DNA of 7,247 nt from positions 1 to 7,247 of IMG/VR virus record IMGVR_UViG_2609459863_000007. One strand, written 5' to 3'. The stretch is from a virus (taxonomy: Duplodnaviria > Heunggongvirae > Uroviricota > Caudoviricetes). Made by a program: the position numbers. Each line of letters starts with the position of its first letter. Position 1 is the stretch's first letter. Below are positions 3,001 to 6,000 of the stretch, one piece after another.

Positions 3001-6000
3001 GGATTCATGACATTTAAACACTATGACGTGGTCAGGGCGGCGTCGCCGTCAGACCTTGCGGAGCGACTGACTCAAAAACTGAAGGAGGGGTGGCAGCCAT
3101 TTGGCAGCCCGGTGGCCATCACGCCTTATACCCTGATGCAGGCCATTGCGGCGGAAGGTGATGTCACCACACCTGTGGTGGTGAAGCCGTCGGATGGAGA
3201 AGGCACAGTTATCAGCACCACCAGCGAACCGGAGTATTACTTTGTTGTTGCCCTGGCCGGGCAGTCAAACGGTATGGCGTATGGTGAAGGGCTTCCGCTG
3301 CCGGAGACATATGACCGTCCGGACCCGCGTATTAAACAGCTGGCGCGTCGCAGCACTGTCACGCCGGGTGGTGCGTCCTGTAACTACAATGACATTATTC
3401 CTGCGGACCACTGCCTGCATGATGTTCAGGATTTGAGTAAGTTTTCACACCCGAAAGCCAGCGCAGCTCAGTATGGATGCGTGGGGCAGGGATTACATAT
3501 CGCGAAGAAATTGTTGCCGTTTATTCCGGCGAATGCCGGTATTCTTCTGGTTCCGTGCTGCCGTGGTGGTTCTGCATTTTTGGCGGGCGATGAAGGTACC
3601 TTCAGCGAATCCACCGGCGCAAGCGAGACCTCGGCACGCTGGGGTGTAGATAAGCCACTGTACAAGGACCTGCTTACCCGTACTCAGGCCGCACTGAAGG
3701 CCAACCCTAAAAATATTCTGCTTGTAGTGGTCTGGATGCAGGGCGAGTTTGATTTGAAACAGGGTGCATACGCCACTCAGCCGGGGCTGTTTGATTCCAT
3801 GGTGGAAAAATATCGTTCTGACCTGTCGGAATTCGGAGGTCAGTGTCTCGGGGGCTCTCCGTCATCGGTTCCCTGGATTTGTGGCGACACGACCTACTAC
3901 TGGAAGCAGACTTATTCTTCGCAATACGATGCGGTGTATGGTGCATACAAGACGAAATCCGCAAAAAAAATCTTCTTTGTGCCGTTTATGACGGATGAAA
4001 ACGGGCGAAATGTGGGTACCAACGAGCCGTCAGAAGATCCGGATGTTGCGGATATTGGGTATTACGGAGCCGGTGGTCGAACGGACGCCAAAACCTGGAC
4101 GACGGCCGACCGTAAAACGCATTTTGGATCATGGGCACGTCGTGGGATTATTTCCGACCGTCTGGCAACGGCGATTCTTGTGCATGCCGGGAGAACCGCT
4201 GAATTCATTACCGGAAAACAGCCTGATACGGTGAAGCCCACCGGACCTTCCGGTGAAGGTACGGAGAGAGAGCCGGAAGCCCCGGTCAGTAACCGAACCC
4301 TGATGAGTCTGCTGGCGTCCGGCGAAGACCTGGCATCACAGGGCTGGCGCTATTATCACAAACCGGCGAGCGGAGACAATGTTAACAAAAACATTGCTGA
4401 AGCGGTGGTCAGTGATGCGGGGGCTACGGGAGGTAAGGCCCTGCAACTGAATAAACCGGAAAACCACATCTGGTTTCTGGAGCATGATGCAGCCGGACAG
4501 GGAGTGGAGTTACTGAAGAAGGGGGGACGTGTGAGCGTACGGTTTAAGTTGCCGGGTTCACTGGTGCCGAATCGGTTTGCCCTGGGCATTTACTGGCAGT
4601 TGTCGTCCCTGCCGGAGGGAGTGACGCTGGCAGAGGAAGGCAACGACATGCTGATGTCCTTCTTCCTGCAGACGGATGCGACGAACCTGAACGCGATGTA
4701 CCACAAGAAGCCGAATGCGAAGCTGGATACGTTCGGGGTCTTTGATAACGGATGGCACACACTGGCTTTTGAGTTTGCCGGAAACAACAGCATTCAGGTG
4801 ACGCCGGTACTGGATGAGAAACGGGGGACGCCGTTCACACTGGTGAAATCTCCGGCATCAGGGGCGGCGGACAAACTGCAACTGACAGGCATATCAAAGG
4901 CGGCGACATATACGCTGCTGATTGACAGTGTGAAGGTGGAAGTGAACAACGCGGATGCCGCGGCATGATAAAAAAAGCCGCCAGCGGCAGGAACGGAAGC
5001 TGGCGGAGGTAATCCCAATGGAGAATCTAACGAAAGGATGCTTTCGACATCAATCATTTCTAAATGAAAACAGTTCTCATTGTCAACCATAACGGTAAGA
5101 AACTATGACATTTATTCATCAGGTGATGCTGTACTTCTGTACGGCGGTCTGTGTGCTGTATCTTCTTTCGGGTGGGTACAGGGCAGTGCGCGATTTCTGG
5201 CGCAGGCAGATTGATAAAAGGGCCGCAGAGAAAATCAGCGCCAGTCAGTCAGCCGGAGCAAAAACAGAAGCCCCACTCATTCCGGAACAACCTTCTTAAT
5301 AACCCCTTTCAACGAGAAAATCCTATGTCAGAAATAAAATCGCTGGTCACTGCTGAGGCAGTGAAGGAAGTCCTGCGCTCTGAAGAAGTCCGGAGCGCAC
5401 TGAAACAGCAACTTCGGCAGAACCTTGAGGCGCGTCTTGATGCAGAAGTGGATTCAATTCTGGATGAATTGCTTGGTGCACAGCCGGAACCATCCCCGGA
5501 ACTGCTTCCGGAACCACAGGCGGAAGATGTCACCACGGAAAATGGTGATATTCAGCCGGAGCCACCGGTGACGGATATGACAGACACACAACCCGAACCG
5601 GGCACAATGCTGTAACGGCGGGGCAGGGCCATCAGTAAAGAGCTGGTGGCCCTTTTGTTGTTGTGAGCTTCCGAGTACGGGAGACGGGGTATGTACCAGA
5701 TGGAAAAAATCACAACAGGTGTGTCATACACCACGTCAGCGGTGGGAACGGGCTACTGGTTCCTGCAGTTGCTGGACAGGGTTTCCCCGTCTCAGTGGGC
5801 GGCAATAGGCGTGCTGGGGAGTCTGTTGTTTGGGCTGCTGACATATCTGACTAACCTGTATTTCAAAATCAGAGAGGACCGTCGTAAGGCGGCGCGGGGA
5901 GAGTAAAGCGATGAAGAAAAAATACGAACTGGTTGTTAAAGGGATAAATAATTACCCGAATAAGATTACTGTTACTGTGGCACTGGAAATTGGTGGGTAT

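Follow-up and report, generated by a model that had tools for sequence, protein, structure and literature searches.

In the Shiga toxin (Stx) phages 933W and VT2-Sakai, two small genes lie between the esterase gene nanS-p and the holin gene S, with a terminator downstream. Their products (Orf25 and L0106 in 933W, H0119 and H0120 in VT2-Sakai) belong to DUF1378 and DUF826, prophage gene families that are already catalogued as domains of unknown function. Published work contains passing mentions only, with no experiments on either family, and a literature search by locus tag (ECs1209-1211, Z1467, L0106, vb_24B_22-24 and EcOnc51/52) returned nothing relevant. On one side of the pair is the toxin and esterase cargo, and on the other are the lysis genes through which Shiga toxin leaves the cell; if the pair tunes lysis timing or esterase release, the toxin and enzyme delivered by an induced cell would be affected.

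Several described systems provide points of comparison. In phage T4, where T is the holin, RI is a membrane antiholin with a periplasmic functional domain and RIII is a cytoplasmic antiholin. Small single-pass membrane proteins can also act as exclusion factors, as does HK97 gp15. T7 Ocr and ArdA fold as rigid dimers, mimic bent B-DNA and are produced first when the DNA enters; known anti-restriction proteins act, and are needed, at DNA entry.

Here we describe a locus of this type in a 7,247-nucleotide stretch of viral DNA (IMG/VR record IMGVR_UViG_2609459863_000007, positions 1 to 7,247), referred to below as the window. The explanation that we favor, at a probability of roughly one half, is that the two ORFs are genuine DUF1378 and DUF826 genes, mobile together with nanS-p, that form a late-acting accessory module for events at the envelope. 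As it stands the finding concerns ordinary annotated genes, and the gain is the rejection of a DNA-mimic hypothesis together with a clearer view of the genomic associations of the pair.

The two genes and their products

The window matches an annotated E. coli chromosome at 99.9% identity over the region and the phages 933W and VT2-Sakai at ~82%. Its prophage is an Stx-phage-like lambdoid prophage, but the region carries no stx genes. The following features all lie on the plus strand. The nanS-p gene (3007-4968) encodes a SASA-family sialate O-acetylesterase of 653 amino acids (Pfam SASA, DUF1737 and DUF6645) and is the conserved partner 5' of the pair. The DUF1378 gene, here called ORF64 (5105-5299, 64 amino acids; Pfam PF07125, phrog_494), and the DUF826 gene, ORF96 (5325-5615, 96 amino acids; Pfam PF05696, phrog_311), are followed by a predicted intrinsic terminator (5625-5663), in which a 12-bp GC-rich hairpin (5625-5653) precedes TTTTGTTGTT. 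The first lysis gene is S (5691-5906), which encodes a class II (P21-type) holin with the dual start MYQM (Pfam PF04971, Phage_holin_2_1, 112.5 bits); dual-start function is established for the S21 holin. A first-pass annotation had described the interval from nanS-p to the holin as containing a membrane peptide, a very acidic protein rich in Pro and Glu, and a terminator, and the Pfam matches confirm both flanks. Families, gene order, position and downstream terminator are the same in 933W and VT2-Sakai, where the two proteins have 59 and 90 residues, the second difference being an 18-nt in-frame difference in the tail. By its GC content the pair does not stand out as foreign. The orf-64 of phage lambda has the length of ORF64 and a similar position but no similarity to it.

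ORF64 matches the DUF1378 profile at 119.1 bits (gathering cut-off 25; E = 9e-35) over residues 1-59 of a 59-position profile. Its Kyte-Doolittle hydropathy peaks at 1.93 over residues 3-21, and this peak together with the Pfam match bears out the initial reading of a 64-residue ORF with one hydrophobic helix. In the family alignment the transmembrane helix is N-terminal, at about residues 3-23, with the conserved pattern LLYFC..V..LYL.SGGY, and the C-terminal part of ORF64 is basic (pI 9.2; charge of that part +2.8). By the positive-inside rule, DUF1378 probably crosses the inner membrane once, exposing a short N-terminus to the periplasm and a basic helix to the cytoplasm (N-out/C-in).

ORF96 matches the DUF826 profile at 98.8 bits (gathering cut-off 25; E = 2e-28) over residues 1-57 only, and this profile models the tail inconsistently. 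The conserved part is a helical domain at residues 1-51 (5325-5477), with a charge of -4.5. The tail, residues 52-96 (5478-5612), holds 11 Asp/Glu, 10 Pro and no Lys or Arg, and ends in the hydrophobic tip TML; this composition and the computed pI of 4.05 (net charge -15.5) agree with the earlier description of an acidic, Pro/Glu-rich C-terminal half. The AlphaFold2 model has one helix at residues 10-17 and another at 20-49, and beyond them the tail is disordered, with pLDDT below 50 from residue 60 (residues 60-90). The acidic stretch and hydrophobic tip are kept in 47 of 75 DUF826 cluster representatives, and in a Mu/P2-type subfamily the acidic tail is absent, only 4-8 residues following the helical domain. 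A full HMMER search with the helical domain recovered 35 clusters, all of small proteins, with no informative domain fusion. DUF826 appears to be cytoplasmic, its acidic helical domain being followed by a flexible, likewise acidic tail that carries a hydrophobic tip.

Both ORFs are genuine protein-coding genes under purifying selection. All 57 distinct homologous loci have both ORFs intact, with none of the frameshifts or stop codons that would indicate non-coding DNA, and all length differences are multiples of three. The dN/dS ratio is 0.07-0.36 for ORF64, ~0.1 for the helical domain of ORF96 and ~0.36 for its tail. NCBI PGAP starts the DUF826 gene at a TTG further upstream, which gives 134 amino acids. 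The ATG at 5325 is to be preferred, because the Pfam model and all distant homologues start there, because an AAGGAG ribosome-binding site precedes it in the Mu-like homologue, and because the frame under selection in the overlap is that of DUF1378. In 56 of 57 loci no stop interrupts the DUF826 frame for 66 codons upstream, and at least 58 open codons are seen in 9% of synonymous recodings. A longer DUF826 of 134 or 154 residues, or a frameshift fusion with DUF1378, was rejected, since the substitution pattern favors the DUF1378 frame; the DUF1378-DUF826 "fusions" in databases (P0033 and P0070) are single frameshifted entries.

The terminator and transcription of the interval

A strong intrinsic terminator had been called at 5626-5660, and a hairpin with its T-run is indeed found there, at 5625-5663. 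Seven of the 12 stem pairs are G-C, the stem being followed by TTTTGTTGTTG, and the fold (-29.1 kcal/mol, z = -4.66) is more stable than that of any of 200 shuffled sequences. A distance of 28 nt separates the 3' end of the terminator from the start codon of S (5691). Across 10 variants, 95.8% of alignment cells are paired, compared with 22-71% in control registers slid by 1-3 columns; five pairs are changed on one side only, and two show compensatory changes on both sides, both of these in one sequence (L088). A second hairpin, overlapping the ribosome-binding site of the holin, was no stabler than shuffled sequence (z = 0.52).

The terminator was also said to close the pair, and this holds for its position 3' of the two genes but not as a property of the pair. 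Prophage PP2 of E. coli E2348/69 lacks both ORFs and keeps a homologous terminator ~55 nt upstream of the holin, so the terminator is a standing element of the stretch that precedes the holin. Like the Q-overridden late terminators of lambdoid phages (tR' and those downstream) and the terminators that close units of phage cargo ("moron") genes, it has a GC-rich hairpin and a U-run, and like the lambdoid ones it lies inside a Q-dependent operon, 5' of genes that must be silent in the lysogen. It differs in that it is not tR', lying ~3.6 kb downstream of Q, and in being kept even where the two ORFs are missing. The hairpin would keep unmodified polymerase out of S and R and would be read through by Q-modified polymerase. 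A plausible role is that of a safeguard before the holin, overridden by Q-modified polymerase, and as such it is a candidate device by which a lysogen could transcribe cargo genes without killing itself.

The pair has no convincing promoter of its own: the best plus-strand candidate between nanS-p and ORF64 has 9 of 12 matches, and its -10 element overlaps the ORF64 ATG. Transcripts of the two genes would come from upstream and include nanS-p: in lytic growth they would start at pR' with antitermination by Q, and read-through from a lysogen-active promoter of the STnc100/PasD sRNA type may add to them. The window has a match to STnc100 at 2578-2783. Q-independent promoters have been found downstream of tR' in Stx prophages (PMC7547250), and PasD sRNAs are abundant in EPEC lysogens (PMC8550237).

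A minus-strand element is also seen at ~4969-5050, with a terminator (4969-4997) that abuts the nanS-p stop codon. The Hfq-dependent sRNAs PasA and PasC of EPEC prophages occupy the same interval between nanS-p and the holin, on the strand opposite nanS-p, and PasC and the longer form of PasA likewise end at a terminator abutting the nanS-p stop. A blastn search of the window with PasA and PasC (word size 7) gave only chance-level matches of 8-12 nt, and MAFFT alignment with the minus-strand element showed loose similarity only. The plus-strand terminator (5625-5663) was considered as the 3' end of PasA or PasC and rejected: these sRNAs lie on the opposite strand and have no match in the window, and the terminator is distinct from any Pas sRNA.

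Genomic contexts and possible roles of the pair

The pair is common. Among complete E. coli genomes it is present at 2343 places in 1006 of 5426 genomes (about a fifth), in 1-7 prophages each, and it is found in ~307 phage records, almost all Stx or lambdoid, including nearly every Stx phage. Three independent arrangements link the two genes. The lambdoid one, as in the window, is esterase-DUF1378-DUF826-terminator-S. The Mu-like one is gin-esterase-DUF1378-DUF826-com/mom, with no holin; of 33 IMG/VR loci, 32 include upstream DNA and every one of these shows it, as does GenBank LC727895, and its proteins are 60% (esterase), 47% (DUF1378) and 46% (DUF826) identical to those of the window. In the third the order is reversed, DUF826 then DUF1378, 3' of a tail-fibre assembly gene. 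The esterase, DUF1378 and DUF826 genes form a three-gene unit that moves between phage types. Its occurrence in Mu-like prophages is new here, as are the reversed order after tail-fibre genes and the placement of DUF1378 alone after Rz/Rz1.

Each gene also occurs without the other, and the partnership is therefore not obligate. DUF826 alone is found before the small terminase subunit gene. DUF1378 alone lies directly 3' of Rz/Rz1 in 24 IMG/VR loci and in phages BUCT708/709, whose type of cassette combines a P21-type holin with a signal-anchor-release (SAR) endolysin; it also follows Rz/Rz1 in an unrelated lysis cassette, that of a Lonsdalea prophage whose holin and endolysin are of other kinds, the one locus found when species genomes were scanned with DUF1378. 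The corresponding scan with the DUF826 alignment found nothing. In the two loci read directly (BUCT709 and Lonsdalea), DUF1378 and Rz share an ATGA start-stop overlap.

Our best guess is that the pair is a late-expressed, membrane-associated accessory module, possibly linked to lysis. The two proteins most likely would work as partners on the cytoplasmic side of the inner membrane, with the acidic DUF826 helix against the basic DUF1378 helix and the DUF826 tail perhaps tethering a third partner. The charges of the C-terminal part of DUF1378 (+2.8) and the DUF826 helical domain (-4.5) are complementary. The single most likely role is lysis modulation, a tentative assignment. Lysis genes abut the pair in the window and DUF1378 where it follows Rz/Rz1, whereas the Mu-like and tail-fibre contexts have no adjacent lysis gene; with contexts so mixed, it is DUF1378 and not DUF826 that carries the link to lysis. 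Furthermore, all of these are classical cargo sites, and adjacency may for that reason reflect co-transfer and not shared function.

A reading that has about one chance in five takes this last point further, treating the pair as independent moron cargo that is of use to the lysogen or keeps other phages out, for example through superinfection exclusion at the inner membrane, with no role in lysis or for the esterase. Cargo is known from all the places at which the genes occur, namely 5' of S, 3' of Rz, 3' of tail-fibre genes and the right end of Mu; the unit is closed by a terminator, and typical exclusion factors are small single-pass membrane proteins like DUF1378. Presence is also patchy in the manner of morons, the pair being present or absent among related prophages: it is absent from PP2 and PP5 of E2348/69 and found in lambdoid, Mu-like and tail-fibre-adjacent contexts, with DUF1378 alone in the BUCT709 type. 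However, no promoter of the pair's own was found before ORF64, PADLOC gave no match, and the ATGA coupling of DUF1378 with Rz argues for co-expression with lysis genes over expression in the lysogen.

Somewhat less probable is a service to the NanS-p esterase, in which the pair would bring the enzyme, assumed to have no signal peptide, to the membrane or effect its release, either at lysis or earlier. The order esterase-DUF1378-DUF826 is shared by two unrelated phage types at 46-60% protein identity and recurs in essentially every E. coli lambdoid copy listed. On the other hand, nanS-p is found without the pair in PP2 and PP5, and no esterase accompanies the pair or its members where they follow Rz/Rz1 or tail-fibre genes or precede terminase; to our knowledge, no export system resembles the esterase with DUF1378 and DUF826.

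The first-pass annotation had proposed ORF96 as a DNA mimic, or some other anti-restriction or anti-defence protein, and this now seems very unlikely. ORF96 is small, very acidic and phage-encoded, as T7 Ocr and ArdA are phage- or mobile-element-encoded, and most family members keep the acidic tail. A check of pI, disorder and predicted structure upheld the acidity (pI 4.05) and the disorder of the tail but gave no mimic fold: the predicted helices and disordered tail would offer no compact or rigid charged surface, unlike the folded dimers of Ocr and ArdA. A Foldseek search of the PDB with the ORF96 structure returned no matches, profile searches against PDB sequences, PADLOC and NCBIfam gave nothing significant, and ORF96 matches no known DNA-mimic family in Pfam. 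Conservation in the family centers on the helical domain, and the Mu/P2-type subfamily does without the acidic tail. The gene is linked to genes for a membrane protein and an esterase and not to replication or early genes, and within the Q-dependent late operon its place is distal, 5' of the lysis genes. Its timing, as judged from that position, would be late, which counts against a mimic because anti-restriction proteins are needed at DNA entry.

That one or both ORFs are non-coding, their conservation being that of an RNA or DNA element, is extremely unlikely: a conserved minus-strand terminator and a promoter-like site adjoin ORF64 and sRNA genes occupy the nanS-p-to-holin interval in other prophages (PMC8550237; bioRxiv 10.64898/2026.05.13.724894), but the substitution pattern contradicts it (dN/dS well below 1, with changes mostly at third positions), indels are in frame, both ORFs are kept in unrelated phages at 40-50% protein identity, and no Rfam match at E <= 1 falls within 5105-5660.

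Comparison with antiholins and post-spanin genes

The late accessory module that we favor can be stated in a more specific form, itself rather unlikely: DUF1378 and DUF826 would be a two-component late regulator, a membrane anchor and a cytoplasmic helical partner with an acidic tether, that travels with NanS-p between lambdoid and Mu-like phages and controls either the timing of pinholin/endolysin lysis or pre-lytic release of the esterase. If true, it would represent a new class of accessory for lysis or cargo release. One point of reference is the Mu gp25 "releasin" and other small post-spanin membrane proteins, since DUF1378 alone likewise stands directly after Rz/Rz1 in cassettes with SAR endolysins. 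The likeness to gp25 is one of gene position only, the Lonsdalea endolysin is apparently not of the SAR type, and DUF1378 of the window lies before the holin, not after the spanins as do the gp25-like genes. The T4 proteins RI and RIII provide the other. They have no sequence or structural similarity to DUF1378 and DUF826, and the T4 holin T is not of the P21 type. By analogy, what the two systems may share is the logic, in which a small membrane protein and a small helical cytoplasmic protein of the phage act on the timing of lysis, together with a similar adjacency to the holin.

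Two conserved genes upstream of the holin

The window (7.2 kb) spans the genes for late regulation and lysis of a lambdoid prophage that is related to the Stx phages, and it contains no stx gene. A DUF968/HNH gene (619-1614) and the Q antiterminator gene (1617-2024) are followed, both on the plus strand, by a 95-aa ORF (2136-2423) that matches phrog_331 (unknown function; E = 1e-42) and no Pfam family, and by a full-length Rfam match to the STnc100 sRNA (2578-2783; 143 bits, gathering score 47). Next come the esterase gene nanS-p (3007-4968), the two small genes considered here, and a P21-type holin gene with a dual start, MYQM (5691-5906). 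The window differs from 933W-type phages in carrying a 176-aa DUF1327 (YdfR-family) gene (5911-6441, plus strand) between holin and endolysin. A 79-aa minus-strand ORF follows (6374-6613), and a minus-strand gene annotated as DUF1823-containing occupies the same position in phage PhiR5_1 (PV340545). The lysozyme encoded at 6675-7208 has at its N-terminus a hydrophobic segment of the kind found in signal-anchor-release (SAR) endolysins. The segment 4960-5700 is 99.9% identical to the E. coli DETEC-S792 chromosome and about 82% identical to 933W, VT2-Sakai and many further Stx phages; related copies were counted at 2343 sites, spread over 1006 of the 5426 complete E. coli genomes, with at most seven per genome.

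The features described in the first-pass annotation are all present at the positions it gives. In the product of ORF64 (5105-5299, plus strand) a single hydrophobic helix spans residues 3-21 and the C-terminal part is basic; the product of ORF96 (5325-5615, plus strand) has a pI of 4.05 and a 45-residue tail with 11 acidic residues, 10 prolines and no basic residue. The two are members of Pfam families DUF1378 (E = 9e-35) and DUF826 (E = 2e-28), names already used in RefSeq annotation, and are orthologues of 933W Orf25/L0106 and VT2-Sakai H0119/H0120. The only paper found to name both domains does so in a single sentence, as proteins of unknown function (PMC10462455). The present analysis adds evidence from synteny and a negative result for the idea of DNA mimicry.

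Both ORFs are real genes. Frameshifts and stop codons in homologues had been named as signs of non-coding DNA, but all 57 distinct homologues taken from IMG/VR and GenBank have both frames intact, with every change in length a multiple of three. Values of dN/dS are 0.07-0.36 for ORF64, about 0.1 for codons 1-51 of ORF96 and about 0.36 for its tail. Frameshifted tails occur in 11 of 75 DUF826 cluster representatives, mostly backed by one or a few sequences. The DUF826 frame is also open for 66 codons upstream of the ATG in 56 of the 57 loci, overlapping the DUF1378 gene (window 5151-5324 and 5211-5324, plus strand), and PGAP therefore calls proteins of 128-141 aa from an upstream TTG. Synonymous recoding leaves at least 58 codons of this upstream frame open in 9% of cases. 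Because selection in the overlap acts on the DUF1378 frame, the longer protein probably reflects an error of annotation; fusion of the two proteins by programmed frameshifting is conceivable.

The DUF1378 alignment has an invariant core, LYF...V..LYL..GGY, predicted to form the membrane helix, and then a basic amphipathic stretch. In DUF826 the domain common to the family comprises 51 residues, modelled by AlphaFold2 as two helices (10-17 and 20-49; pLDDT above 90 for residues 21-50), with the remainder of ORF96 predicted to be disordered. The tails range from 3 to 61 residues and vary in sequence as well, and one subfamily stops a few residues past the helical domain. Of the 75 cluster representatives whose tails reach 15 residues or more, 52 have five or more excess acidic residues, and in 47 of the 75 the tail additionally closes with a hydrophobic tip (TML, MML or MMM, for example). 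A search of 1.84 billion representatives gave just 35 clusters, a very small family, and all its members are small proteins with no informative domain fusion among those clusters.

Terminators and transcription in the nanS-p-to-holin interval

A strong hairpin does lie where a terminator had been proposed to close the gene pair (5625-5653; 12 pairs and a T-run; -29.1 kcal/mol, surpassing all 200 shuffles). All 10 distinct variants examined keep it, and 95.8% of cells are paired. Two pairs have changed on each side of the stem, in a single sequence, and five more on just one side; shifted registers pair much more poorly. In E2348/69 prophage PP2, where the PasA sRNA region takes the place of the two ORFs, a homologous hairpin (GGCCGTCAGT...ACTGGCGGC, then T6) precedes the holin by about 55 nt, and this comparison argues that the terminator is a fixture of the holin-upstream region and not of the pair. 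Since transcription has to pass this site to reach every lysis gene downstream, and presumably also morphogenesis genes that lie outside the window, it is natural to infer from lambda biology that Q-modified polymerase reads through. The mechanism suggested in the first-pass annotation, in which lysogen-expressed transcripts would stop at this site, is a reasonable proposal.

No convincing plus-strand promoter was found between nanS-p and ORF64, so the pair is probably co-transcribed with nanS-p. Related prophages have Q-independent sources of transcription upstream: a start site between tR' and stx2 in Sakai (PMC7547250), and an abundant sRNA of PasD/STnc100 type just upstream of nanS-p in EPEC (PMC8550237). 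A 2026 preprint relates STnc100 to PasD sRNAs, which are abundant in EPEC lysogens. In the window, transcripts from the promoter of the STnc100 element just upstream of nanS-p (2578-2783) could extend through nanS-p into the two small genes.

Two further elements were observed in this region. A six-pair hairpin (CUUCCG AGUA CGGGAG; 5668-5683, plus strand) overlaps the holin ribosome-binding site upstream of MYQM and may bear on which of the two holin start codons is used; it is conserved in most variants, with loop changes, and its stability is not above that of shuffled sequence (z = 0.52). On the strand opposite to nanS-p, 4969-5086 is a candidate small RNA gene. Its promoter-like site (TTGACA at 5086-5081, 18 nt, TAGAAA at 5062-5057) has 10 of 12 matches, the best in the interval, and its terminator (4997-4969; CCGCCAGC, a 13-nt loop, GCTGGCGG, T7) ends at the nanS-p stop codon, with hairpin and A/T-run kept in 57 of 57 homologous loci. 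Position and strand are as in EPEC PasC and the long form of PasA, with no sequence match to either by blastn. The interval has alternative contents, DUF1378-DUF826 in the window (4960-5700) and the PasA region in PP2 (2760-3220 of that locus), and both versions keep the minus-strand terminator at the nanS-p stop and the plus-strand terminator before the holin. Alignment of AATGCCATAA against AATGCTGTAA points to a possible remnant of the DUF826 3' end ahead of the PP2 terminator.

Genomic associations of DUF1378 and DUF826

The most informative result is the genomic associations, in which the two families are joined in three independent settings. Lambdoid prophages invariably have the esterase first, followed by DUF1378, DUF826, the terminator and the holin. 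In Mu-like E. coli prophages the gin invertase gene precedes a NanS-p-like esterase gene, after which come DUF1378, DUF826, and com and mom-like genes, with no holin nearby; this trio of esterase, DUF1378 and DUF826 is present in all 32 IMG/VR loci having upstream DNA (of 33), from several diverged lineages. Esterases of the NanS-p type therefore extend beyond the lambdoid phages. The case examined most closely, a Mu-like phage inserted in Stx1 phage LC727895, shares 60%, 47% and 46% protein identity with the window for esterase, DUF1378 and DUF826, respectively. Its esterase gene (1094-3136 of that locus), like those of the other Mu-like loci, sits between gin and com/mom; the 60% identity extends over 605 residues, and a differing N-terminal region of about 100 residues stands where the window protein has DUF1737. 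A further group, of myovirus-like contigs, has DUF826 ahead of DUF1378, the opposite order, between a tail-fibre assembly gene and a Dam methylase gene.

Each gene also occurs alone. DUF1378 directly follows Rz/Rz1 in 24 IMG/VR loci and in phages BUCT708/709; the holin of their cassette is of P21 type, and the endolysin shares 73% identity with that of the window. In BUCT709 the DUF1378 ATG overlaps the Rz stop (ATGA). The same position and overlap recur in a Lonsdalea prophage whose holin and endolysin are different; it was the only match in 185,579 species genomes. DUF826 alone lies upstream of the small terminase subunit gene in seven loci, and nanS-p is found without the pair in E2348/69 prophages PP2 and PP5.

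Putative roles of the pair

That the two genes recur side by side, in either order and on backbones that are unrelated, argues for joint action of their products. The trio with the esterase points to a connection with NanS-p, and the coupling of DUF1378 translation to that of Rz, seen in two different cassettes, to one with lysis. Co-transfer could by itself explain part of the pattern, because the genes always lie at classical cargo sites. In view of such mixed associations only a general model is adopted. The pair would be a late-expressed inner-membrane module, with DUF1378 as anchor and DUF826, of complementary charge (-4.5 against +2.8), as cytoplasmic partner; the acidic tail with its hydrophobic tip would be a likely tether for a third protein.

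Among the putative roles, modulation of lysis is ranked first, tentatively and with a probability of roughly 0.3. An unrelated function in lysogen benefit or exclusion ranks second and is rather unlikely, and a role as esterase accessory, third in rank, is more doubtful still. The earlier proposal that ORF96 is a DNA mimic, for which its acidity is the sole argument, is very improbable, since the AlphaFold2 model has no compact fold, a Foldseek search of the PDB and comparisons with PDB sequences, PADLOC and NCBIfam gave no match, the acidic tail is not the conserved part of the family, and the gene lies at the far end of a Q-dependent late operon, adjoining the lysis genes, whereas anti-restriction proteins must act as DNA enters the cell. 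Ocr and ArdA are not supported as relatives. For modulation of lysis, the first-ranked role, the comparisons are with the T4 RI/RIII antiholin pair, which the DUF1378/DUF826 pair resembles in logic and position only, and with Mu releasin, to which DUF1378 bears a likeness of the same limited kind.
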